Below, in pieces: positions 19,332 through 44,491 of a DNA stretch of 64,000 nt; the stretch's first letter is position 1, and the number at the start of each line of letters is the position of its first letter. The translations under genes and the position numbers were made by a program. This stretch comes from Candidatus Enterocola intestinipullorum (GTDB taxonomy: Bacteria > Bacteroidota > Bacteroidia > Bacteroidales > Paludibacteraceae): assembly GCA_017694565.1 (NCBI GenBank), contig JADIMR010000033.1:3501-67500 (forward strand), given 5' to 3'. A model generated the notes under the pieces. The model worked only from the letters and a program-made list of their open reading frames with translations. It made no database searches and was not told where the DNA came from.

Positions 19332-19410
19332 AACCACTGTCCACTAATTCACTAATCAGCGTTTTAAATTTTAAATTTTAAATTTTCAATTTTTAATTAT
19401 GTATTTGTAG
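19332..19410 (+). repeat. Heptamer tract plus module C copy C2
   Basis: AACCACT GTCCACT AATTCACT AATCAGC, then TTTAAAT x3, TTTCAAT, TTTTAAT, then TATGTATTTGTAG. Aligns with 2144-2192. Confidence 0.85.
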
Positions 19411-22569: not shown

Positions 22570-22881
22570 TTAATTCATTTTTCCGAATGCATAAAATGAA
22601 AAACGGCGGCAGGAAACCGACTCTATGCCGCCCATGCCGTAGAACGCCCGTTGGCCGATGTTGGTAACGCCTTCCTCCACGACCACGCTCGTTATTTCCT
22701 TGCTTCCCCATACATTATACATGTACGTCCTCATTTCTCCGGTCCCGCTGATTGTCAGCACGCCGTCGTCGGACAATTCCCAACGGAGGGTTTCGCCATC
22801 CTTGCCGCAATAACCGTTCTCGGCCGCTGACGATACGATTGCTGTGGAAATGCAAAACAATAATAGTAAAAACTTCTTCAT
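22570..22881 (-). pseudogene. Probable truncated BspA-type leucine-rich-repeat surface protein fragment
   Basis: From the ATG at 22881: signal peptide MKKFLLLLFCISTAIVSSA, then CGKDGETLRWELSDDGVLTISGTGEM and VTNIGQRAFYG. It stops after about 100 aa, whereas such proteins are normally several hundred aa. Confidence 0.35.
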
Positions 22882-23106
22882 GATATTTGATTGATTGGTA
22901 AATAGCTCACAAAAGGACATGGCGGGACAACCTGTCTTCCACACATTAGAACCGGACATGGACAATCCCGTTATCTGCAAACTTAATGTAAAAAGATAAA
23001 AAAAGCAATCAGTAATGAAAATGTTCTTAAAAGTTGGGGAGAAGAAAAATGGAAACCGTTTGATTTTCTCAGGTGAAACTTGTATCTGCATATCAAACGC
23101 ATGAAA

Positions 23107-23147
23107 AGCCGGACATATTCCGCATAGGGAACGGAATATGTCCGGCT
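23107..23147 (-). terminator. Hairpin terminator downstream of the cas effector operon
   Basis: AGCCGGACATATTCCG-CATAGGGAA-CGGAATATGTCCGGCT (16-bp perfect stem). The minus strand continues TTTCATGCGTTTG. Confidence 0.5.
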
Positions 23148-23171
23148 CGTATTCTTTTGCGATTTTCCAGA

Positions 23172-24281
23172 TTAAAAATCCTTATAAAGTCCTTTATCGT
23201 AAAACTCGGAGATTCTCCCGGCAAGCAACTGCACAGCATCAGTCAATGCGGAAGAGGATTCTCCTTCGGTCATGATATAACCGGCGCAAGGCAGTGTTAT
23301 AAACAGTTTTGCACCTGTATTTTCATCAATTATAGGTTTGGCTTGCGGATTCTCGCCATCGTCTATCAATTTGGCCCGTATTGCCGATGCTATCGTATTG
23401 GCATTGTCGCTGATGGCAACAGCCAATGTCTCCATAAGACTGAAAGTCCGGGACTGGTTCGATGTGATTCTCCAATTAATCAAGGCATCGGCCAACGCAG
23501 GAATCACTTTGTCTCGTTCAGTTTTCGGCAAAACCAAACATTTGCCAAAGATGTTCTCGCTTTCTTCCCATCCTTCTGATTTCAATTTTCCTATCATGGA
23601 TTTGCTGATTTCGGCTTCATGCTGGTTGGTTGACACGCAGAACAATGTTCGCAAATCGATTGCTATGTCATAGACGAAAAAGCCGCTTGTCCTTTTATTA
23701 TCCGGAATCCATGTTCTGCGAGGCAATGTCCGATTATTCGTATTTAGAAAATCTTCAATTTCTTCTTCCGATAACAATTTGTCCGATCCCGCCATACGCA
23801 CATTTACAGGATGGTTATCGGGACGGTCGCTACGGTCAAAAGTCAGGTTCTCTTTTTCGACACCAGCCAACAATGGATGAAGGGGGCGCATTGCCGACAC
23901 TGATAACGGACTTCTACGTTTCAGTACGCTATTGTCCTTCGCTTCCTCCGATTCGTTTTTAATATTTTTCCCGGATGTGTTTTTGGCACGCATCCATCCA
24001 CCCAAAAGTTGGTCGATATGGGTAGGATCACATGGAGACCACGGTTCCTTATTCTCAATCTCGCCTTTGCTGGTAATATTATAATTGAACGTAATAGGTG
24101 CGACCGGAACATTCAGATTATCCGTCAATGTTTGCAACACCGAACGTTTTACCTGTTGTCCGCTGGAATATGCCATATATCTATTGAACTGGGCATCAAA
24201 ATATGTTTTCTGCCCGTCTTCGACACAAAACACTGTATGTTCGGCGTGTTTCAACGCCCTTAAATAAATGTAGGGATTCAT
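23172..24281 (-). CDS. cas7: Cas7-like Cascade backbone subunit (assignment by position, size and weak motifs)
   Basis: 369 aa and last gene of the effector operon. YSSGQQVKRSVLQTL resembles the Cas7 S-x-x-x-K-R helix motif. LKRRSPLSVSAMRPL and GFFVYDIAIDL are RAMP-like strands. Confidence 0.6.
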   Translation of the reverse strand: MNPYIYLRALKHAEHTVFCVEDGQKTYFDAQFNRYMAYSSGQQVKRSVLQTLTDNLNVPVAPITFNYNITSKGEIENKEPWSPCDPTHIDQLLGGWMRAKNTSGKNIKNESEEAKDNSVLKRRSPLSVSAMRPLHPLLAGVEKENLTFDRSDRPDNHPVNVRMAGSDKLLSEEEIEDFLNTNNRTLPRRTWIPDNKRTSGFFVYDIAIDLRTLFCVSTNQHEAEISKSMIGKLKSEGWEESENIFGKCLVLPKTERDKVIPALADALINWRITSNQSRTFSLMETLAVAISDNANTIASAIRAKLIDDGENPQAKPIIDENTGAKLFITLPCAGYIMTEGESSSALTDAVQLLAGRISEFYDKGLYKDF

Positions 24282-24283
24282 GA

Positions 24284-25585
24284 TTATTTCTTTTTGGGAT
24301 TATTCAATGTTGCATAATGGAATTTGATTAACGTGAGAAAATAAGGCACATTTTCAGATGGCATAGAGCAGATTTCTTTAACTGTTTCTTTCATTTTATC
24401 CACATTTTCGGCATCCTCGATAATTGGTATCATGCTTTTCATAAAACCGATTTTAGTACAAGATTCCAGAACGGCTTTTACCTTATTGGAATTGACAGTC
24501 TTGCCCCTGTCCGGGACAGAGGCATATTTATAAAGTTCCGACGCGAATTCATGGGCCTTGTCCCATAAATCCTGATTATTCAACATTGCCATAAGCCAAA
24601 TTACATTTACATTGAAGTTTATTATCTGTTCGTTCTTATCTGATATTTTAGGTATTTTGCCCTTATATATATATTCTCTCAATCCCTTGGGTTGCATCGC
24701 GTCTAATCCTATCGCCCCGTTTTGGCAAGCTTCCCGAAACCCCATCCCGGTTCCCCATAAAGGTTCTGCAGATTTAGCAGAATCCATACCAAACATTTTT
24801 TTGTACAATTCGATAGGGCGTGAAATTTGAGATAGGTCAAAAGGGATAAAACCTAACGTCGTATTCATTTGACCAAATCCGCAGACATATCCCATAACTC
24901 TGGCATTTTTATAGTTTCTTGATATACCTATCAATATTTTCGTCCACGAAACCGGCTTGATTTCGACTTCTTGGTTCTTTACCGTAAACGGGGTAAACCC
25001 GGCCATCATGTCGGAAGCATCAAAATCTTTATCATCATAGCGGTGGCCCAACCATTGACCGTTCCATGTCATTATTTTATTAGGCGGGTACTTATCATAA
25101 CTATCCAAGGCTTCGCGGTACAATTTCCAACCTTCAAACACATCCAACAAGATGTCCGCATTGTAAAAATATATCGCCACGCCGCCTTGCACCCCTACCC
25201 CCAAAGCAGCCCCGAACCACGAGCAATAAACATCCTCTTCCGACACCGGTATATGTATGTTTGTAACCTGCCCGGATGTCGTGGCGAATTCTTTTTCTTC
25301 GGATGCCGGGTAACCTATTGCCACACTCGCGTCTTTAGCTCCGTTTTCGATTTTAGTTATTAGATTGTATAGTTTTTCCTTTCTTTCTTCCTCTGTAAGA
25401 TTGTCGACTTTCTGCTTTTTCTTCATCTGTACAAATGGTGAATTTTGTACCCAATACAGATATTTGTTGCTATTAAAAAACAACGGATAAAAGATGTCGA
25501 TAAAAAATTGCTTTGCGTCATAAGACTTATTGTTTCGCTTATTATACGCTTGCAAAAACATTCTTCCAATCACTGATGTTATCAT
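24284..25585 (-). CDS. Candidate Cascade large subunit (Cas8-like); no motif recognised
   Basis: 433 aa, 2 nt after cas3 and 2 nt before cas7. It is the only Cascade-sized ORF left for the large-subunit role. The helical C-terminal ~100 aa start at Met332/Met334. Confidence 0.45.
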   Translation of the reverse strand: MITSVIGRMFLQAYNKRNNKSYDAKQFFIDIFYPLFFNSNKYLYWVQNSPFVQMKKKQKVDNLTEEERKEKLYNLITKIENGAKDASVAIGYPASEEKEFATTSGQVTNIHIPVSEEDVYCSWFGAALGVGVQGGVAIYFYNADILLDVFEGWKLYREALDSYDKYPPNKIMTWNGQWLGHRYDDKDFDASDMMAGFTPFTVKNQEVEIKPVSWTKILIGISRNYKNARVMGYVCGFGQMNTTLGFIPFDLSQISRPIELYKKMFGMDSAKSAEPLWGTGMGFREACQNGAIGLDAMQPKGLREYIYKGKIPKISDKNEQIINFNVNVIWLMAMLNNQDLWDKAHEFASELYKYASVPDRGKTVNSNKVKAVLESCTKIGFMKSMIPIIEDAENVDKMKETVKEICSMPSENVPYFLTLIKFHYATLNNPKKK

Positions 25586-25587
25586 GG

Positions 25588-27723
25588 TTACAAAAATTCA
25601 AAATGTTTGTAATATTCAGGTTTTGCATGGCCCAAATCCAAACCCTTGTCATAGGAATAGGACAAATCTGGTACTACAAAAGGGTAAGAACCTTTCTCTA
25701 TAACTTGTAAATCATTAAACCTAATGGATTGAAAACTGACCGGGATTTCCATTGCCGATCTCTCCATAGCATTGCCTTTACGGTAGGTTTCGACATCCGA
25801 TTCCACTATGCAAACAGCAGAATTCATATCTAAAAAATCCATCAATACAGATTTGGCATTATGGCGCAGCTTTTTTATCACCCATTTGCCATTCTTGAAA
25901 GCGACCCCTGAATAATCTATATTCATAAACTTGTCATCTGGATAAACCGTATCCAACATTTCTTGAATACTTTTTTCTTCCAAAACAGAATTGTCCGGTA
26001 AAACGTCATAACTTTCTCGTAATATTTCCTCTTTATATGGAAGTACCTCTTTACCTGAATGTGGATACAGTACATAAATAGGTTTATATCTGCCAATTGA
26101 TTGTCTTGTGCGTTTTCGGTTTACCCGGCCGAAACGTTGTATCATAGCATCGATTGGAGCGCATTCCGTTATCATCATATCAAAGTTTATATCCAAACTC
26201 ACCTCCACAACTTGGGTCGAAACCACTATGCAAGCCTTGTGACCTGCACTATAGCGGTTTGTTAGAATTTCTTCCAATTGTTGCCGGTCTTTCCTCTTGA
26301 AATGACTATGGATCAGCATAATCGGAATGTTCGGATATTCGGCTTTCAGTGATGAATAAAGTTCTTGAGCCCTCTTTACCTGATTACATACTACAAGTAT
26401 CTTTTGATCTTTTTGAAGCGCGGAATCCATATCTTTTCCTACTGCAGCGAAATTTTCCGCTTTATGGATTTCGTGCCTGTCGAACAATGACAATTCGTCT
26501 TCCGGCAAGGCGACCTCGTAAACTTGGGACGGACCGCCCAAAATTGCCAGAATCCTGTCATACAACACCTTAGGCATTGTTGCTGTTCCCACATGCACCT
26601 TGCATCCCACATTTACCAATATTTCAATAATTCGCAAAACTATGGCTTGAATTTCACATGAATAGGTGTGAATCTCATCCAAAATCACATCGCAACCGGC
26701 CAAATCGACCAGCATCGCCTCGTAGCCCTTGATTCCAAAAGCTATGGAAGCCAACTGGTGCGGAGTCATTACCTTTATTGATGCGCCTGCATGCCGTTGC
26801 ATTATACGTTCTTCCCATTTCCCATATTGCAGTTTCATTCCGGACGATGCATGTAACAACCGGATTTGAGCGTTTGTTCCCTTCAAATCCGTTTTGAAAC
26901 GGTCGTACATAGCATTAATTGAAGCTTGGAACGGCAAGGTATAAAAAACTCTTCCTTTGCATCTACGCAACAAAAAATCAGTTTTACCTGCGCCGGTAGG
27001 AGCCGTAACAATAGTGTGCTTGCAATCACTTTCTGACTTTTTCATGGAAAGGGGAAACAAATCATTCCGCCTGTTATAAAAAGTCAAGTCCGGAACAATG
27101 AAGGATTTTTTCAATTCACCAACCGTGAGATTTCCTAATGCCGAAGCCATGTGGTCAGCTTCCATAAGCAACCCTCTCCATTTGGAATATCCATAACCTA
27201 TGTTATTACAATAAGATACTGCATAATCATAATTTTCCTTGGCTTCCTCAATTGAAATCTCATGTACGGTAAATCCAAGCGTATCCAATATTCCCAATGC
27301 AATAGGGCTCCATGACTCAAAACCTTTTGAATGTATGGTAAAACTATCTTCCAAGTCATCCAAATCCAACAAGCCCAATTCTCCGGCATCCTTATAAACT
27401 GATTTGTGGTGGGCGACTACCATCTCCAAAACCCTATTTCTTTCATTTTCTTCAACAAGCGAAAGAAAAAACAACGAAGCTATCTCATGCCTGAATATAA
27501 ACCCGGACGGGCGGACATATCCGTGCCTCAATGTATTTTGAAAAACAGGACTGACTTTGCCGATATCGTGCAATATGGCTCCTTTTCGAGCCGAGGAAAC
27601 ATCAAGACCGACATTGCGTGCTATGGTTTCGGCAGATAATGCGACCAAAGACAAATGTTCGGACAACGGCATAAATCCATCGTCTTCGTGTTTTGCCAAT
27701 ATTTGTCCAAAACCATTCTGCAT
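25588..27723 (-). CDS. cas3: CRISPR-associated helicase/nuclease Cas3 (HD domain fused to SF2 helicase)
   Basis: HD motifs LHDIGK, RHE and AHHK. Helicase motifs TAPTGAGKT, DEIH and GTATMP. The ATG at 27723 forms a TGATG overlap with the cas5 stop; the track start at 27762 would give a 40-nt overlap. Confidence 0.92.
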   Translation of the reverse strand: MQNGFGQILAKHEDDGFMPLSEHLSLVALSAETIARNVGLDVSSARKGAILHDIGKVSPVFQNTLRHGYVRPSGFIFRHEIASLFFLSLVEENERNRVLEMVVAHHKSVYKDAGELGLLDLDDLEDSFTIHSKGFESWSPIALGILDTLGFTVHEISIEEAKENYDYAVSYCNNIGYGYSKWRGLLMEADHMASALGNLTVGELKKSFIVPDLTFYNRRNDLFPLSMKKSESDCKHTIVTAPTGAGKTDFLLRRCKGRVFYTLPFQASINAMYDRFKTDLKGTNAQIRLLHASSGMKLQYGKWEERIMQRHAGASIKVMTPHQLASIAFGIKGYEAMLVDLAGCDVILDEIHTYSCEIQAIVLRIIEILVNVGCKVHVGTATMPKVLYDRILAILGGPSQVYEVALPEDELSLFDRHEIHKAENFAAVGKDMDSALQKDQKILVVCNQVKRAQELYSSLKAEYPNIPIMLIHSHFKRKDRQQLEEILTNRYSAGHKACIVVSTQVVEVSLDINFDMMITECAPIDAMIQRFGRVNRKRTRQSIGRYKPIYVLYPHSGKEVLPYKEEILRESYDVLPDNSVLEEKSIQEMLDTVYPDDKFMNIDYSGVAFKNGKWVIKKLRHNAKSVLMDFLDMNSAVCIVESDVETYRKGNAMERSAMEIPVSFQSIRFNDLQVIEKGSYPFVVPDLSYSYDKGLDLGHAKPEYYKHFEFL

Positions 27724-28280
27724 CAATCGGGAAGTATTTTTCTTCCGTCCACTTCTATCCATCCATACATGGGGGTTCCATCAAACCTGCTATATCCCAC
27801 CAAAAAAGATTGGCTAGATTTACCGAACCGTAGCTCGAATCCTTTTAAATCATTGAAGTTTTCTTCGGTCATTTCATAAATGACACTATCCGGCAACAAG
27901 ATATCTTCATTCCTGCACAAACAAATATGTTGCGAAGACGCATATAACGCATCCTCCCTATTATCAAATGCCAAATACAAAACAGGATTTACCATTATTC
28001 CGCGCTTTAATACCGCAGTACTTCTTGATCCTTTATTTTCATCATAACCGCGCGTCTGCGTCTGCTCTTGTTGAAGGCTTATTGATGAATAAGACAACCG
28101 GTATCTTTTTATCTTACTTATTACACCGATATTCGAAAGTGTTTCAGGGAACAACTTCTTTTCTATGCCTTCCAAGGTCGAAGCAGACAGGAATTGTTGA
28201 CTGTAAGTCGTCTCGTCCCTAACAGCTGTCCAAGGTTTTATAAAACCGAAATTCCCGGTAAATTTTATTACGTAATACAT
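27723..28280 (-). CDS. cas5: Cas5-like RAMP subunit
   Basis: 185 aa from the ATG at 28280 (the track begins at the TTG at 28286). The N-terminal GNFGFIKPWTAVRDETTYSQQFLSASTLEGI resembles the Cas5 beta1-alpha1 signature. LCRNEDILL is near the centre. Confidence 0.55.
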   Translation of the reverse strand: MYYVIKFTGNFGFIKPWTAVRDETTYSQQFLSASTLEGIEKKLFPETLSNIGVISKIKRYRLSYSSISLQQEQTQTRGYDENKGSRSTAVLKRGIMVNPVLYLAFDNREDALYASSQHICLCRNEDILLPDSVIYEMTEENFNDLKGFELRFGKSSQSFLVGYSRFDGTPMYGWIEVDGRKILPD

Positions 28281-28296
28281 ATTCAAATCTTTTACA

Positions 28297-28962
28297 TCAA
28301 TAAATAGCGCCGAATCCTATTCCAGTAGAATTTCCAATACCTACGTTCCATGCAAATTCTTTTGTTTCAGGCTTGGCGAATATATATACCGGGCACATAT
28401 TCGAGGTATTGCATATACCTCTATAACTGGCATATTTTATTTTCTTGTTGGCGTATTCCCTGTCAAATCTAATGTCAACAGATTCATCTGGAATCAGTCC
28501 AGCCGCTTCCATTTTGTGTAGCAGGGTCTCTTTCATCAAATCATCTGCCGTAAGATCCTCATACGTGTAATATTTTGTAACAGGATTTCCTACCTCGTAC
28601 CTTTTTATCAATATGGGACTTCCCAGATAAAATAAATCCCTATTGCTTAGGTCAGGGACCGGCTCTATATTCAAATCAGTTACTACCAATCCATCAAACA
28701 TTAACGGGTCTTTTAAAACCGCAGCCATTACGGCTTTCAACAATTTATCATCATAAAAACTCATAAACCATTGGCTACCTCTCGGAAAATCGAAGCCGCC
28801 GGAAGTTATATGACCTTTATGCAACCATGAAAAAGAATACAACGACAACTTACCATGCTCCTCATTATTACCGAGCCATGAATGGATTCGTCCAACCATT
28901 TTCTTCTGATAATCAAAGGAAACAATGTTGCTATTGGGAGTCGTTTTAATATGTAACCTCAT
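28297..28962 (-). CDS. cas6: Cas6 pre-crRNA endoribonuclease
   Basis: 221 aa. C-terminal glycine-rich loop GIGNSTGIGFGAIY is typical of Cas6. First gene of the effector operon. Confidence 0.8.
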   Translation of the reverse strand: MRLHIKTTPNSNIVSFDYQKKMVGRIHSWLGNNEEHGKLSLYSFSWLHKGHITSGGFDFPRGSQWFMSFYDDKLLKAVMAAVLKDPLMFDGLVVTDLNIEPVPDLSNRDLFYLGSPILIKRYEVGNPVTKYYTYEDLTADDLMKETLLHKMEAAGLIPDESVDIRFDREYANKKIKYASYRGICNTSNMCPVYIFAKPETKEFAWNVGIGNSTGIGFGAIY

Positions 28963-28982
28963 TTTGCATCAAACAAATTAAA

Positions 28983-29001
28983 CAACTTAAAGTTGTGCAA
29001 C
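28983..29001. promoter_or_regulatory. Overlapping palindromes in the cas6/cas4 divergent promoter region
   Basis: CAACTT-A-AAGTTG (28983-28995) overlaps GTTG-TG-CAAC (28992-29001), 21-39 nt upstream of the cas6 ATG. Possible operator; function unknown. Confidence 0.25.
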
Positions 29002-29137
29002 TATAATTCATAAATGATACCACTAATATAGATAATTTTTCTTTTATTTGTTTTTATAAAAAACAACGATATTTCAAACCATGACACAAGCAATATCAAT
29101 TCGATTATTTATGTAAATAATAACGGGACATGGCATT

Positions 29138-29653
29138 ATGCACATAACAGGCACACATTTCAATTACTATCAAGTATGTAAACGAAAACTATGGTTGTTC
29201 GCGAACAGCATCAATATGGAACATTCTTCTGATTTGGTATTTGAAGGCAGACTAATACATGAAAGTTCTTATCCTCAACGTTCGGAAAAATTCGAGGAAA
29301 TTGAAATCGACGGTATAAAAATCGATTTTTACGATACAAGGCAGAAAGTCATTCACGAAATAAAAAAATCCAATAAAATCGAGAAAGCGCATGAGTGGCA
29401 ATTGAAATACTACATTTATGTTTTTGAATGCCACGGCATCAATGGTGTTAGAGGGGTATTGGAATACCCTACATTGAAAAAGACCCGGACGGTAGAATTA
29501 AACGATTCTGACAGACTTGAAATAAAGAAAATACAACAAGATATTCAACAATTGGCAAACAATGATACATGTCCTCCTCTAAAAAAAGGAGGCATGTGCA
29601 AAAATTGCAGTTATTATGATTTTTGTTATACATATGAAGAATACGAGCCATGA
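29138..29653 (+). CDS. cas4: Cas4 (RecB-like exonuclease with Fe-S cluster)
   Basis: 171 aa. N-terminal Cys (YYQVCKRK), a D...E-I-K nuclease core (IDFYD...VIHEIKKS) and C-terminal CKNCSYYDFC. Confidence 0.9.
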   Translation: MHITGTHFNYYQVCKRKLWLFANSINMEHSSDLVFEGRLIHESSYPQRSEKFEEIEIDGIKIDFYDTRQKVIHEIKKSNKIEKAHEWQLKYYIYVFECHGINGVRGVLEYPTLKKTRTVELNDSDRLEIKKIQQDIQQLANNDTCPPLKKGGMCKNCSYYDFCYTYEEYEP

Positions 29654-29740
29654 AAAAACATACTACTTGTTCAATACTATTGCAAGAGTTCCCCAATTTA
29701 TGCCCTTTTTTCCATGAAAAAAACATACTACTTGTTCAAT
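29648..29740 (+). repeat. Direct duplication of the cas1 5' end at the cas4 stop (period 64 bp)
   Basis: CCATGAAAAAACATACTACTTGTTCAAT (29648-29675, A6) versus CCATGAAAAAAACATACTACTTGTTCAAT (29712-29740, A7). Confidence 0.95.
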
Positions 29741-30730
29741 CCTGGCATACTGGAACGTAAAGACAACACTTTGCGATTTACTCCATGCACGGACAATGAC
29801 GATGCCCCACCAGACAACACCCAGTCGCGCTATTTACCCGTTGAAGACATAGGCGATTTTTACGTTTTCGGCTCCCTAAGAGCCAATAGCTCCTTGTTCA
29901 ATTTCTTAGGGCAAAAAGACATAGCCGTACATTTTTTTGACTATTATGAAAATTATACCGGTTCTTTTATGCCTCGTGATTACCTATTATCCGGAAAAAT
30001 GCTGCTTGCGCAAACATCGAACTACCAAAACAAGAAAAAGAGAATGATAATTGCGCGCAAATTCATAGAAGGAGCCGAATTCAACATGGTGAAAAACATT
30101 CAATACTACAACCGTAGAGGAAAAGACCTTGACGGTATCATAATAAAAATGGATGATTTGGCCGCATTGATTCCAAATACCGGAACAACCGAAGAATTGA
30201 TGGGCATCGAAGGTTTGATAAGACAACATTATTATAATGCTTTTGATATAGTGATTAATGACTTCGAGATGGAATCCCGGACAAAGCAACCGCCAAAGAA
30301 TGAAATAAATGCACTAATTTCGTTCGGTAATATGATATGTTATACAATATGTTTGCGTGCCATTCACCAAACTCAACTGAATCCGACTATTAGTTATCTG
30401 CATAATCCCGGGGAAAGAAGATACTCATTGGCTCTTGACATAGCAGAAATATTCAAACCTATCATAGTGGACAGGGTTATTTTTCGTGTTTTGAATAAAA
30501 AAGAAATCCAAGAAAAACATTTTGAAAAAAGTCTGAACGGATGTTTGTTAAATACTTCCGGAAAAAAGATATTTGTAAAAGCAATTGAGGAACGTTTGAG
30601 CGAAACAATACAACATCGTTCATTAAAACGTTCCGTAAGCTATCGACACCTTATAAAACTCGAATGTTATAAATTAGCCAAACATTTGTTGTCAATGGAA
30701 GAATACAAACCTTTTAAAATGTATTGGTGA
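29714..30730 (+). CDS. cas1: Cas1 integrase
   Basis: 338 aa. [28 protein letters not shown] matches the conserved Cas1 H...SL-x-x-D-x-x-E-x-F-(R/K)-P motif. Confidence 0.93.
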
Positions 30731-30993
30731 TGTATGTAATTCTAGTTTATGATTTTGGAGAGAAACGAGTCAACAAGATGTTGAAGCTATGTAGAAAATA
30801 TCTGAATTGGATTCAGAACTCGGTATTTGAAGGCGAAATTTCCGAAGCAAGACTAAGAGAAATGTTGTTGCTTAGCGAAAAATTCATGAAAAAGGACGAA
30901 GATAGCATAATAATATTCCGAGGTCCGTCACAGTCTTATTTAGAAAAACAAATTATTGGAAAAGAACGTTCTCCGATTGACTTTTTCATATAA
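30730..30993 (+). CDS. cas2: Cas2
   Basis: MYVILVYDF... beta1 strand with the catalytic Asp. 87 aa from the ATG that overlaps the cas1 stop (TGATG). Confidence 0.9.
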   Translation: MYVILVYDFGEKRVNKMLKLCRKYLNWIQNSVFEGEISEARLREMLLLSEKFMKKDEDSIIIFRGPSQSYLEKQIIGKERSPIDFFI

Positions 30994-31158
30994 AAAAGAA
31001 CAAGCCATGTTGTCTATCAAGCAGAAAAATCGTTGAAAAGTTTCAATAAATCCCGAAAACGATCTTTGACATATTGATACACAACAAGTTATGGGATTGT
31101 CGAATTACAAAGGTTTCTTTATTATCTTTCACCGACAACTTTTATAGGTGTTTTTCAT

Positions 31159-31166
31159 TATCTTTG
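31159..31166 (+). promoter_or_regulatory. Candidate -7 box for pre-crRNA transcription
   Basis: TATCTTTG (TAnnTTTG), 52 nt upstream of the first repeat. It is the same octamer as the purL candidate. Confidence 0.3.
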
Positions 31167-31183
31167 CTTATAATTATGCACTA

Positions 31184-31215
31184 TGCATCAATGGCATAAC
31201 ATCGCCATTGATGCA
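31184..31215 (+). other. Perfect 12-bp inverted repeat abutting the first CRISPR repeat
   Basis: TGCATCAATGGC-ATAACATC-GCCATTGATGCA, followed by GG and then repeat 1 at 31218. Confidence 0.9.
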
Positions 31216-31217
31216 GG

Positions 31218-33369
31218 CTATTAATGCTACTATATAGAATTGAAATCTTATAGCTCCGGTTATGCACAATATAAACGTGTACTATTAATGCTACTATATA
31301 GAATTGAAATCGAAGACCCCGAATGGGACAAGTTATTCTCGCTTTCTATTAATGCTACTATATAGAATTGAAATAACAGAAAATCATTGCCGAAAGATCG
31401 AAGATTGACTATTAATGCTACTATATAGAATTGAAATTCTTATGAGGCAATATTATGAGCAAGGCGCACATCTATTAATGCTACTATATAGAATTGAAAT
31501 TTAGTCCCCATATGCCTATGCAGGCGACAACAAACTATTAATGCTACTATATAGAATTGAAATATATGAGGCTCTCTGCACCTTGTAATTATACCAATTC
31601 TATTAATGCTACTATATAGAATTGAAATACATGCTCGCCTTGTATGTCCCGGCATTCGAAGAAGCTATTAATGCTACTATATAGAATTGAAATAGCCTCC
31701 TGGCGCGCCTTCTCCTGGCTTAGCTGCCTATTAATGCTACTATATAGAATTGAAATCTCGTAATTGGAAGGGTCGGGGTCGAACCACGGCACCTATTAAT
31801 GCTACTATATAGAATTGAAATCGTATGTGTTCTCCGGCGGGTAATACAGCGGGTTGTTCTATTAATGCTACTATATAGAATTGAAATTTCAAAGACGAAG
31901 ATATTCTTCTTCCAAACATGACTATTAATGCTACTATATAGAATTGAAATTGCTGACGGAAAACCTTTTCATGGACAACAGAGACACTATTAATGCTACT
32001 ATATAGAATTGAAATATGTCCGATTCTGATGCTGGTTCGAAAATGGGACAACCTATTAATGCTACTATATAGAATTGAAATATGGAATCTTGACCAATGG
32101 AATCGCGAAAATGAATCTATTAATGCTACTATATAGAATTGAAATCATTTAACGCCTCGTAAAATTCAACTCGAAGCAGTACTATTAATGCTACTATATA
32201 GAATTGAAATTTCTAAAAATGCTGAATATCAGTATGGACGTCAACTATTAATGCTACTATATAGAATTGAAATAGGCCTTGCGGGAACTGCAGCAGGACG
32301 AGAACCATTCTATTAATGCTACTATATAGAATTGAAATGATTATCCATCGTCCTCTGCGTGTTGTCAACAAGAGACTATTAATGCTACTATATAGAATTG
32401 AAATAAGTTATTAGCCATTTGTGTTTGTGTGTACATCTTCTATTAATGCTACTATATAGAATTGAAATTCGGTTCTTTTTTCAGGTACATGCCGTTTTGT
32501 ACCTATTAATGCTACTATATAGAATTGAAATTCCATTCCAGCATCTTGTCTATTTTGACAAGGCCGCTATTAATGCTACTATATAGAATTGAAATTCATA
32601 AGGTCTGTCGGGTGATAGTATCAGTATGTTCTCTATTAATGCTACTATATAGAATTGAAATAAGCTCGTTTCCTTCGCCGCCTGTCCCTTCGGGTCCACT
32701 ATTAATGCTACTATATAGAATTGAAATAACATCGCGAGGTTCTTGACAAGGCAGCGCATTATGCCTATTAATGCTACTATATAGAATTGAAATTGTGCTA
32801 TGCGCGAGCGAAAATCCCGACTACGACCCTATTAATGCTACTATATAGAATTGAAATTTTCGTGCTTATCAATTGGTTTGGAATGAGTACTTCTATTAAT
32901 GCTACTATATAGAATTGAAATAACGGGTATTTAATTAAGGACGTATCGGATACGGCTATTAATGCTACTATATAGAATTGAAATCAAATAATTGATTTAC
33001 AAATATTTGTGGAGATTACCCTATTAATGCTACTATATAGAATTGCAATGCCTGCAAGTCGGGAAGTGCAGAAGTAAAATAATCCTCTATTAATGCTACT
33101 ATATAGAATTGAAATAGAAATGGGTGCAGTCATTGGTGGGTGCGCGTGTCCTATTAATGCTACTATATAGAATTGAAATATAAGGAAATCTTACGCAGTC
33201 TGTCACGTAAACACCTATTAATGCTACTATATAGAATTGAAATCAGTTCTGGCAGCAGGCTCTCGAATTTCCTGTAACTATTAATGCTACTATATAGAAT
33301 TGAAATCAACCGATTGCACGGGCGGCAAACCGAGTGGGATCTATTAATACTACTATATGGAATTGATAT
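31218..33369 (+). CRISPR. CRISPR array, 34 repeats / 33 spacers
   Basis: 29-nt repeat CTATTAATGCTACTATATAGAATTGAAAT. Unit periods of 63-66 nt give spacers of 34-37 nt. Repeat 29 (33021-33049) has A26C. The last repeat (33341-33369), CTATTAATACTACTATATGGAATTGATAT, has 3 mismatches. The 3' ATTGAAAT fits an 8-nt crRNA 5' handle on the plus strand. Confidence 0.98.
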
Positions 33370-33510
33370 AATTTATGCGCTCATAAATTGCTATAACACT
33401 GGAGAACGGGACATCACCTATGGTATAACCCGAACACGGACAATACATTTACCACGAGCAATAATTTGACAAGACTTAATTTTTCCACGCACTTCATGCC
33501 ATATAAATAA

Positions 33511-33565
33511 CCGCGTCCGTTTATATGCGGCGTAGAACGGAATTTGGGCATATAAACGGACGCGG
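33511..33565 (-). terminator. Hairpin downstream of mntP
   Basis: CCGCGTCCGTTTATATG (33511-33527) and CATATAAACGGACGCGG (33549-33565) form a 17-bp perfect stem with a 21-nt loop. The minus strand continues TTATTTATATGG. Confidence 0.45.
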
Positions 33566-33583
33566 CGCAAGGCTGCTGAAAAC

Positions 33584-34183
33584 TCATATCATGGGTAATG
33601 TATGCTCCACCAATATCTTGATGCCTATGGCTATAAGGACGATGCCGCCCAATATATTGAAGCGGAACTTGATTTTCTTGCCGAAATACGATCCGAGCAG
33701 CGACCCTGTAAGCGACATGGCGAAACTTACCATGCCGATTATCAACACTGCCCTGAATATCCATCCGGGTGTAGTGATAAACACCAAACCGGTGGCAAGG
33801 GCATCTATGCTTGTGGCTATGGACAATAACAGGACAAGGCCCATGCCGTAAGACTTGTTACATTCGGGTTCTTGCCCGCAAGCAGGTTTGTCCTCGTCAC
33901 AATTACGCCGCTGCCGCACATCGTCGGTTATCATTTTGATGCCTATCGCCGCCAATATGCCGAACGCTATCCAATGGTCGTAGGCGGCTATGGCATCTGC
34001 AAAACTTATGCCGGCTGCGAAGCCTATCAGGGGCATGAGGCCTTGAAAAATACCGAACGACAAGGCCATTGCAAAAAAATTGGGCAGACTTACTCTGCCC
34101 AATGATGTGGATTTTGCCATTGAAACGGCGAAACAGTCCATGGCGAGACCGAACGCCATAAGAATTACGGTGGTATAATCCAT
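33584..34183 (-). CDS. mntP: Manganese efflux pump MntP family
   Basis: 199 aa and six TM helices. Duplicated motif GLAMDCFAVS / SIDALATG. Confidence 0.88.
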   Translation of the reverse strand: MDYTTVILMAFGLAMDCFAVSMAKSTSLGRVSLPNFFAMALSFGIFQGLMPLIGFAAGISFADAIAAYDHWIAFGILAAIGIKMITDDVRQRRNCDEDKPACGQEPECNKSYGMGLVLLLSIATSIDALATGLVFITTPGWIFRAVLIIGMVSFAMSLTGSLLGSYFGKKIKFRFNILGGIVLIAIGIKILVEHTLPMI

Positions 34184-43221: not shown

Positions 43222-44456
43222 TTCTGTAAAGCGTTAATGCGTTGTAACAAAGTGGGATGCGAATAATGTACAAAAACGTATGCCGGATGCGGTTGCAGGT
43301 TGCTCAAATTCGCGGATGAAAGTTTCTTCAATCCGGAAACGAGACTGTCGGCCAGACCGAACGACTTTGCATACGCATCGGCTTCATATTCGTGTTTGCG
43401 GGAAAATGCATTCATGCCTATGCCCAAAATTATTGAAACCGGGACATACAACATGGCGAATGCCAATATGCCTATATGGAAGGAGGGTTGTTCCGCACCC
43501 ATGGCTTCCGACAATAACGGACTGCCAAGACACAAGCCAAGCAGGAAGAACATCAAAAGGTTGCTTGCCAAAGACACCGCCAAATGCGACAAAGTATGTT
43601 TTTTCTTATAGTGCCCTATCTCATGAGCCAAAACCGCCACTATTTCTTCGGTAGTCATTTGCTCAATCAGGGTATCATAGAGGACTATGCGTTTTTTAGC
43701 ACCCAAACCCGAAAAATACGCATTTGCCTTGGTGCTGCGTTTCGAACTGTCGATGACGTAAATATTTTTAAGCTCGAACCCGGCTTTTGCCGCAAAATCC
43801 TCGATGGCCGTGCGCAATCCGCCGGCTGCAAGCGGGGTCTGCTTGTTGAACAGAGGCACTATCAGTTGCGAATAAAACATCTGCATGAAAATGGAGAATG
43901 CGGCAACGACTGCCCATGCACTAAGCCAAAACCACTGCGGGGCAAGCGAATACAACCATGCGACGAGGGCAAGTATGCCACCGCCCAAAACTATCGTAAC
44001 AAGCAGCTCCTTCAATTTGTCTGCAAAGAACAAAAGCTTAGTACTTTTGTTGAATCCGTATTTTTCTTCTATGACGAAATTGTCGTAATATTCGAATGGC
44101 AAGTTTATCAATTCGTTCGCGACAATGATTATGCTGAAGAACGCGAGCGTAACCAAGAGTTCATTACCGATGAAAGTCCGCAACACCGAATCGAGCCAAC
44201 CGAACAGTCCGCATCCGTAACAAACCAAGAGAACGATTACGGAAAACGTGGAACTCACGATTCCGAATTTGTAATTCTCGTATGAATACTTCTGCTGGCG
44301 GGAGTACTTTTCATTATCGTAAATGCCCTGCAAAACAGGCGGCAAAGGCTTGGAAAACCAACTTGCATTCAATTTGTCCAATACAGTACCGAACACATAA
44401 TCGGCCACGATAAACGCCAAAATCAGGAAAAAAACAAAATTGTACACTTCAGACAA
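43218..44456 (-). CDS. M48 family metallopeptidase (Ste24/HtpX-like)
   Basis: HExxH in LAHEIGHYKKKH. N-terminal multi-TM region. Only a TTG start is available (44456). ATGA overlap with the downstream CinA-like gene. Confidence 0.85.
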   Translation of the reverse strand: MSEVYNFVFFLILAFIVADYVFGTVLDKLNASWFSKPLPPVLQGIYDNEKYSRQQKYSYENYKFGIVSSTFSVIVLLVCYGCGLFGWLDSVLRTFIGNELLVTLAFFSIIIVANELINLPFEYYDNFVIEEKYGFNKSTKLLFFADKLKELLVTIVLGGGILALVAWLYSLAPQWFWLSAWAVVAAFSIFMQMFYSQLIVPLFNKQTPLAAGGLRTAIEDFAAKAGFELKNIYVIDSSKRSTKANAYFSGLGAKKRIVLYDTLIEQMTTEEIVAVLAHEIGHYKKKHTLSHLAVSLASNLLMFFLLGLCLGSPLLSEAMGAEQPSFHIGILAFAMLYVPVSIILGIGMNAFSRKHEYEADAYAKSFGLADSLVSGLKKLSSANLSNLQPHPAYVFVHYSHPTLLQRINALQK

Positions 44457-44491
44457 ATTAAAAATTAAAAATTAAAAATTAAAAATTAAAA
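44455..44491. repeat. AT-rich heptamer tandem repeat (AAATTAA)x5 directly upstream of the M48 gene
   Basis: TT dinucleotides at 44458, 44465, 44472, 44479 and 44486 give an exact 7-nt period. Confidence 0.9.

Follow-up and report, generated by a model that had tools for sequence, protein, structure and literature searches.

The CRISPR-Cas locus at positions 23172–33369 of the DNA analyzed here, a 64,000-nucleotide stretch (hereafter, the window) of contig JADIMR010000033.1 of Candidatus Enterocola intestinipullorum, is very probably an intact and ordinary member of the catalogued Bacteroidota lineage of type I-B systems with a large subunit of the Cas8b6 kind, initially recognized in Bacteroides fragilis, its sole peculiarity being a species-specific inversion of one block of genes. 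A preliminary description of this DNA had recognized a type I CRISPR-Cas locus, an identification borne out by matches to the Cas3 core and HD models above their cut-offs, and had noted that its gene order is unlike those of textbook I-B (Clostridium kluyveri) and I-C, which also proved correct. The same description had read the effector layout as atypical; this reading did not survive our analysis, as I-B profiles exist for all five effector proteins and their order has already been published.

An open reading frame (ORF) scan of the window placed the five interference genes, cas6-cas5-cas3-cas8b-cas7, tightly packed on the minus strand, and cas4-cas1-cas2 and the CRISPR array on the plus strand, facing away from the effector genes. 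The scan and a reading of the junction sequences confirmed the packing reported earlier for the five minus-strand ORFs: a 16-nt gap at cas6/cas5, an overlap of the cas5 stop with the cas3 start (TGATG), and a 2-nt gap at cas3/cas8b and again at cas8b/cas7. All eight cas ORFs are intact, and their translations contain the catalytic motifs.

Each protein was analyzed with three profile libraries, including NCBIfam (with the TIGR models and their cut-offs), Pfam, and the subtype-specific Cas profiles of PADLOC. All eight Cas proteins matched I-B-specific PADLOC profiles over their full length, with E-values of 3e-40 or better. The labels originally given to the five effector proteins (Cas6, Cas5, HD plus superfamily 2 [SF2] Cas3, large subunit, and Cas7) were upheld by these matches, and the comparison with Cas profile collections that had been proposed as a check on the atypical layout led all five to dedicated I-B PADLOC profiles.

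The first gene of the interference operon, cas6 (28297–28962, minus strand), encodes a 221 amino acid Cas6b endoribonuclease that ends in ...GIGNSTGIGFGAIY and shows a glycine-rich C-terminal loop in its translation. It was identified by TIGR01877 cas_cas6 (66.8 bits; cut-off 58.65), Pfam Cas_Cas6_C (7.5e-10), and, over its full length, the PADLOC profile Cas6b PDLC02101 (3.2e-89). The next gene, cas5 (27723–28280, minus strand), encodes a short Cas5b of 185 amino acids counted from the ATG, or 187 from an upstream TTG. Scans of Pfam and NCBIfam gave no match to this protein, and PADLOC gave two full-length matches, to PDLC01480 "CAS-I-B effector_G5" (2.3e-80) and to Cas5b PDLC02093 (2.9e-80). 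Fused HD nuclease and SF2 helicase domains are encoded by cas3 (25588–27723, minus strand; 711 amino acids from M14 of a 724 amino acid ORF), a single protein that matched cas3_core (218.6 bits; cut-off 102), cas3_HD (59.3 bits; cut-off 43), and PADLOC Cas3b PDLC02079 (1061 bits), and whose translation harbors the motifs HDIGK, APTGAGKT, and DEIH. Next in the operon, cas8b (24284–25585, minus strand) encodes the Cascade large subunit, of the Cas8b6 kind. This 433 amino acid protein, without a Cas match in Pfam and NCBIfam, matched PADLOC Cas8b PDLC01511 "CAS-I-B effector_LS" at 4.8e-170 over residues 1–428. Finally, the last gene of the operon, cas7 (23172–24281, minus strand), encodes the 369 amino acid Cascade backbone subunit, which matched PADLOC Cas7b PDLC01493 (7.8e-173), a generic Cas7 profile (1e-6), and, weakly, the NCBIfam model TIGR01875 DevR/Cas7 (4.8e-5). 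Since Pfam and NCBIfam miss the 185 and 433 amino acid proteins and barely see the 369 amino acid one, it is understandable that no familiar motif had been noticed in the large subunit.

The adaptation genes gave equally specific matches. Cas4 (171 amino acids; 29138–29653, plus strand) retains its four cysteines and was identified by TIGR00372 (83.7 bits, above cut-off), Pfam Cas_Cas4 (5e-54), and PADLOC Cas4b (1e-74). Cas1 (338 amino acids; 29714–30730, plus strand) is of the I-B kind: it matched TIGR03641 cas1_HMARI, "type I-B Cas1b", at 461 bits against a cut-off of 304, as well as the PADLOC Cas1b profile, and fell below the cut-off of the I-C, I-D, I-E, and I-F Cas1 models in every case, the I-C model TIGR03640 Cas1c giving 151.9 bits against a cut-off of 385. 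The cas2 gene (30730–30993, plus strand) encodes 87 amino acids, counted from the ATG with which the cas1 stop overlaps (the ORF as mechanically called opens with a TTG at 30724); the product is also 87 amino acids long in conspecific contigs, and it matched TIGR01573 (45.7 bits, above cut-off) and, aligned from residue 3, PADLOC Cas2b (3e-40). The type I signature, a Cas3 with SF2 helicase and HD nuclease, is accompanied by the marks of I-B: a Cas8b-family large subunit, separate Cas5b, Cas7b, and Cas6b proteins, and a cas4-cas1-cas2 module with a I-B-type Cas1.

Subtype I-C (Dvulg), including the Porphyromonas "Pging" variant, resembles the window locus in being a compact type I system that occurs in Bacteroidota and does not encode its small subunit separately. 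Systems of this subtype, however, lack cas6 and rely on Cas5c for processing, whereas the window has a bona fide Cas6 and no matches to the Cas8c/Cas7c/Cas5c or Csp1/Csp2/Cas5p profiles. Membership in I-C was rejected on the presence of cas6, the score of Cas1 below the I-C cut-off, and the lack of any PADLOC match to Cas8c, Cas7c, or Cas5c among the window proteins. A relation to the Pging set (Csp1/Csp2/Cas5p), which had been raised as a possibility, found no support and was rejected as well: in NCBIfam, whose scanned release presumably includes the TIGRFAM models for these three families, a search at E <= 10 returned nothing past a chance match for Cas5 and the 433 amino acid protein and the DevR/Cas7 match alone for the 369 amino acid protein.

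To place the gene order in context, relatives were collected in a one-genome-per-species scan with the Cas8 family, which found 139 loci, and the best 80 were kept; their gene order was determined by tblastn with the window proteins and read as far as each contig allows. These loci come from Bacteroides, Phocaeicola, Segatella/Prevotella, Leyella, Hallella, Porphyromonas, Paludibacter, Chitinophaga, Rufibacter, Prolixibacteraceae, Lentimicrobiaceae, and others. The effector order was cas6-cas5-cas3-cas8-cas7 in 80/80 of these best-matching loci, and in 48 the complete series cas6-cas5-cas3-cas8-cas7-cas4-cas1-cas2 lies on a single strand, followed by arrays with repeats ending in GGAATTGAAAY. 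Adaptation genes were detected in 61 of the 80, always co-directional and downstream of cas7, and none of the 80 genome loci has them upstream of cas6 or on the opposite strand. To judge from these sequences, cas6-cas5-cas3-cas8-cas7 is the ancestral and normal effector order of the Bacteroidota lineage, and tabulating gene order, another check proposed earlier, revealed the norm of a lineage and not an exception.

The same order has been published for the "Type IB" system of B. fragilis, described as cas6 (TM1814)-hypothetical (cas5)-cas3-hypothetical-hypothetical-cas4a-cas1-cas2-array (Tajkarimi and Wexler, 2017; PMC5704556). That paper identifies the hypothetical genes as cas5, cas7, and cas8b6 after Makarova et al. 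(2015), spells out the order in the legend of Figure 3A, and remarks in its text that this order differs from that of C. kluyveri (PMC5704556). The earlier proposal of either a rearranged I-B/I-C-like system or a lineage-specific variant therefore stands in that the locus belongs to a lineage-specific variant of I-B, and fails in that this variant is not uncatalogued (80/80 loci; PMC5704556). The window locus and the B. fragilis system share the gene set and the effector order cas6-cas5-cas3-cas8b6-cas7; cas5, cas7, and cas8 genes that are invisible to standard annotation; a 29-nt repeat with spacers of ~35–37 nt and a homologous leader; and a cas5 of 564 bp and a cas1 of ~1014 bp (the values published for B. 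fragilis are 29 nt for the repeat, 564 bp for cas5, and 1014 bp for cas1; PMC5704556). They differ in the placement of cas4-cas1-cas2-array, which in B. fragilis comes after cas7 and shares its strand but in the window is encoded on the other strand, upstream of cas6. The chromosomal neighborhoods differ as well (map/rmuC in B. fragilis, ffh/folD in the window).

Canonical I-B systems (Clostridium kluyveri, C. difficile, Haloferax, and Synechocystis; Cas8b1-type and others) resemble the window locus in their Cas6-processed CRISPR RNA (crRNA), their Cas5-Cas7-Cas8b Cascade, the absence of a separate cas11 gene, the fused HD-helicase Cas3, the Cas4-Cas1-Cas2 module with a Cas1 of the I-B kind, and a repeat ending in ATTGAAA(N). 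In contrast, their effector order is cas6-cas8b-cas7-cas5-cas3, versus cas6-cas5-cas3-cas8b-cas7 in the window, whose Cas8, Cas7, and Cas5 constitute separate sequence families, with a small Cas8 (433 amino acids) and a short Cas5 (185 amino acids). Similarity to the solved I-B Cascade could be detected neither by sequence nor with Foldseek. It should be noted that the I-B reference order, cas6-cas8b-cas7-cas5-cas3-cas4-cas1-cas2, is descriptive rather than strictly defining; it is departed from in the window and in 80/80 relatives, which are classified as I-B.

The inverted adaptation module that had been described is real, although narrow in extent, being a species-level feature of conspecific contigs only. 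A divergent module was found only in the window and in five metagenome contigs (L081–L085) whose Cas8 is 87–97% identical to that of the window. All five contigs belong to the same species as the window (Ffh 100%, FolD 99%, and flanking DNA ~97% identical) and share its ffh-folD-queD-queE-folE-dxs neighborhood. Taking into account that the layout recurs in five conspecific contigs assembled independently from different ENA/Logan samples, we consider it real and recent. Inverting the cas6-to-cas7 block of the standard order yields exactly the order of the window, so that one inversion is enough, and a single, species-level rearrangement of this kind would be the most parsimonious reading. In this species alone, the cas6–cas7 block (or, equivalently, the cas4–array block) would have been inverted once, so that what had been one co-directional operon became two divergent units with a 175-bp control region in common, the array and leader remaining next to cas2. 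The 175 bp of AT-rich DNA that separate cas6 from the divergent cas4 (28963–29137) would then be one inversion junction and presumably hold the promoters of both units. At the opposite end of the interference operon, 25 nt past the cas7 stop, a perfect 16-bp hairpin with a 9-nt loop (23107–23147, minus strand; 100% complementary) is likely its terminator. The cas genes and array (24000–34000) have a G+C content of 0.34–0.41, versus 0.45–0.52 in the surrounding chromosome, which is consistent with a horizontal origin of the locus.

In relatives, the junction between cas7 and cas4 is a frequent insertion point for cargo, which fits a fragile boundary. Judged by size and position, a co-directional gene of ~335 amino acids, of the RhuM "virulence protein" family, lies there in ~11 relatives (L013, L014, L016, L020, L022, L023, L027, L036, L037, L058, and L065); the copy in L016 (L016:12500-13507), the sole one put through Pfam, matched PF13310 at 4.9e-107. 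Other cargo at this junction includes a Schlafen/AlbA_2-HATPase_c_4 protein, an AAA_14/DUF4143 ATPase, an AbiEi-like antitoxin, and a 518 amino acid ORF in L033.

Several relatives (e.g., L005–L008, L019, and L059) have a CRISPR array directly behind the effector module and lack cas4-cas1-cas2 over a distance of 10 kb. Their arrays (e.g., L006:12387-13067, L019:12504-13253, and L059:12448-13249) have noticeably degenerate repeats, as expected for arrays past spacer acquisition. A near-identical architecture, with Cas8 44–57% identical, was also found in metagenome-assembled genomes (L004, L042, L060, L070, and L077) labeled as Verrucomicrobia, Ruminococcus flavefaciens, Alphaproteobacteria, Clostridiales, and Elusimicrobium, where the locus reflects either binning contamination from Bacteroidota or horizontal transfer.

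Among the conspecific strains, the segment comprising the 3' end of cas3, cas8, cas7, and a 173 amino acid ORF (22613–25937) has ~88% nucleotide identity between the window and L081–L084, with Cas8 87% and Cas7 84% identical at the amino acid level. The other Cas proteins of the conspecifics are 95–99% identical and their flanks ~96–98% identical in nucleotide sequence, and the Cas8 of L085 is 97% identical. The much stronger divergence of cas8-cas7 is suggestive of either allelic replacement or diversifying selection acting on the subunits that would read the protospacer-adjacent motif (PAM) and form the backbone. The 173 amino acid ORF (22570–23091, minus strand), located between cas7 and ffh, matches no family and is 93–95% identical to conspecific DNA at the same site. 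There, a 580 amino acid leucine-rich-repeat protein of the BspA type (PF13306, 1.6e-123) is encoded in two conspecific contigs and a 143 amino acid ORF occurs in two more, and the ORF of the window is probably a truncated remnant that lies outside the CRISPR system. In the closest contig (L085:1-3313), ~420 bp separate cas2 from small co-directional genes, one of them with a faint phage holin match, and the long array of the window is absent or replaced.

The array itself (31218–33369, plus strand) consists of 34 repeats of 29 nt, with the consensus CTATTAATGCTACTATATAGAATTGAAAT, and 33 spacers of 34–37 nt, all of them unique (33/33). The consensus is reproduced exactly in 32 of the 34 repeats; a single mismatch occurs in repeat 29 and three in the terminal repeat, whose degeneration places the leader end at the cas2 side. 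The repeat has next to no secondary structure (-1.2 kcal/mol; z -1.0). Between cas2 and the array, the 224-nt leader (30994–31217, plus strand) aligns in conserved blocks with the published type IB leader of B. fragilis YCH46 (sequence from PMC5704556). It contains TATCTTTG, an instance of the TAnnTTTG motif, at 31159–31166, which constitutes weak evidence; this motif is not enriched across the window as a whole. The repeat 3' end GAATTGAAAY is common to the arrays of 61/85 related loci, and the window repeat carries the clade end GAATTGAAAT, with which the neighboring Cas6 family is always found. The array is read on the plus strand and, by analogy with other type I-B systems, would yield crRNAs with the 8-nt 5' handle ATTGAAAT.

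When the array was compared with 50,697 phage genomes by sensitive blastn, three different spacers found matches in 36 records, mostly Microviridae from mammalian feces. Spacer 14 (32082–32116) matches DNA pilot or minor capsid genes, spacer 26 (32858–32892) matches major capsid genes, and spacer 29 (33050–33086) matches major capsid genes on the other strand. Six microvirus examples showed 27–32 identities over 35–37 nt, and the three bases 5' of their protospacers are CCA, TAC, CCA, CCC, CCT, and CCT, that is, CCN in five of the six, with CC at -3/-2 at all three independent sites. The provisional CCN PAM of the window resembles that of C. difficile I-B, for which a CCN adaptation PAM and a YCN interference PAM have been described and whose repeat, like that of the window, ends in AAT (PMC8406132). 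The system looks active, and these matches suggest, provisionally, that it is aimed at gut microviruses with a CCN-like PAM.

The Cas8 family of the window is large, with 1294 homologues and, at 50% identity, 386 clusters. An AlphaFold2 model of the full-length protein (mean predicted local distance difference test score [pLDDT] 79; predicted template modeling score 0.70) showed a mixed alpha/beta N-terminal part and, at residues ~318–428, a C-terminal six-helix bundle that reached a pLDDT of 85.5 when modeled alone. Foldseek searches of the PDB with both models returned nothing significant, only chains of the I-A Cascade 7tr6 at E 4–5; the match of the bundle to I-A Cas11 (7tr6_D) is likewise non-significant (E 4.2; template modeling scores 0.38/0.42). 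Queries of PDB sequences, one using the Cas8 profile and one using Cas7, returned nothing relevant, and for lack of a significant structural or sequence match the Cas8 and Cas11 assignments stay based on profile and context. The operon contains no separate small-subunit ORF in the ORF scan, and in I-B systems the small subunit is not made from a stand-alone cas11 but inside cas8b, by internal translation. The bundle at 318–428 sits where a Cas11-like small-subunit domain is expected and may act as the small subunit; a Cas11-like product is possibly also made by internal initiation near the invariant M334.

By analogy with characterized type I systems, Cas6 would process the array transcript by cleaving every repeat 8 nt from its 3' end, generating the 5' handle, and Cas5, several copies of Cas7, and Cas8b would assemble with Cas6 on the crRNA to form Cascade, the C-terminal helical part of Cas8b possibly doubling as the small subunit. 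Cas8b would read the 5'-CCN-like PAM, and once an R-loop has formed the HD-helicase Cas3 would be recruited and degrade the target. Cas4-Cas1-Cas2 would insert new spacers at the leader end, beside cas2.

Three other explanations of the locus were weighed against this one. The idea of a new or hybrid type I subtype, either a rearranged I-B/I-C-like system or one related to Pging, with an uncatalogued effector layout, draws on the failure of Pfam and NCBIfam to detect Cas5, the 433 amino acid protein, and (almost) Cas7, on a predicted Cas8 fold without a significant PDB match, and on an order unlike the C. kluyveri I-B reference. We nevertheless consider it very unlikely: these families already have dedicated I-B profiles, which they match at 1e-80 to 1e-173; the order does not vary among 80 loci and has been described in B. 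fragilis, where the name cas8b6 follows the 2015 classification (PMC5704556); Cas8b is polyphyletic, its variants Cas8b1 to Cas8b15 all being kept within I-B (PMC13199841); and matches to Csp1/Csp2/Cas5p or Cas8c/Cas5c/Cas7c are absent, with the I-C Cas1 model below cut-off. That the layout is uncatalogued is a claim already refuted. It is also highly improbable that two unrelated modules lie side by side, an interference module that has shed its adaptation genes beside a cas4-cas1-cas2-array unit acquired independently from another system. The modules are indeed divergent and 175 bp apart, and some relatives (e.g., L005–L008, L019, and L059) hold an effector module and an array with no adaptation genes, but both modules of the window find their best matches in the same Bacteroidaceae clade (L001–L003 and L009–L011; Cas1 79–83% and Cas8 61–68% identical), Cas1 is typed as I-B, the repeat has the clade end always found with the neighboring Cas6 family, and the leader is homologous to the I-B leader of B. 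fragilis. An assembly or scaffolding error as the source of the divergent arrangement, or a locus that is a decaying remnant, is scarcely credible given the same layout in five contigs from different ENA/Logan samples, eight intact genes, 32/34 repeats equal to the consensus, and 33 unique spacers, even with the local structural variation that L085 displays in its ~420 bp from cas2 to phage-like genes.

Several observations do weigh against the assignment to an intact, ordinary Cas8b6-type I-B system. The Cas8 label relies on one dedicated profile, operon position, and size; Pfam and NCBIfam are blind to this protein, and none of the solved Cas8 or Cas11 structures was matched significantly by Foldseek (best 7tr6, E 4–5). 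The phage matches are imperfect (73–91% ungapped identity), the PAM is provisional, and no exact protospacer was found by megablast of the array against INPHARED or with exact 28-mers of spacers 1–3 against IMG/VR. The cas6/cas4 intergenic region (28963–29137) contains neither a clear promoter motif nor an exact Bacteroides -7 motif (TAnnTTTG), and convincing inverted repeats, as well as mobile-element or transposase remnants, were not found at the putative inversion breakpoints. It is also conceivable, if unlikely, that the Cas8b6-type system of Bacteroidota forms a structurally different Cascade that merits its own sub-subtype and that the species-specific split uncouples the regulation of adaptation and interference, a suggestion prompted by the invariant order of its own, the 433 amino acid large subunit, the 185 amino acid Cas5, the lack of sequence or Foldseek similarity to solved subunits, and Cas7, Cas8, and Cas5 families that are invisible to Pfam and TIGRFAM.

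The locus matters little for discovery: to a large I-B lineage that occurs in gut and environmental Bacteroidota and has been classified before, it adds one more member, with a trivial module inversion. Pfam and NCBIfam still miss the Cas5, Cas7, and Cas8 of this abundant lineage, which explains why such loci look "atypical" in raw sequence or standard annotation, and the Cascade structure of the Cas8b6-type lineage is not yet solved. The provisional CCN PAM and the microvirus-like spacers could be useful if the endogenous system is repurposed in Bacteroidales.

Elsewhere in the 64-kb window, no tRNA genes or Rfam families were detected at gathering score. Two heptanucleotide tandem repeats, TTTTAAA x5.3 and AAATTAA x5.3, are located at 19362–19398 and 44455–44491, respectively.

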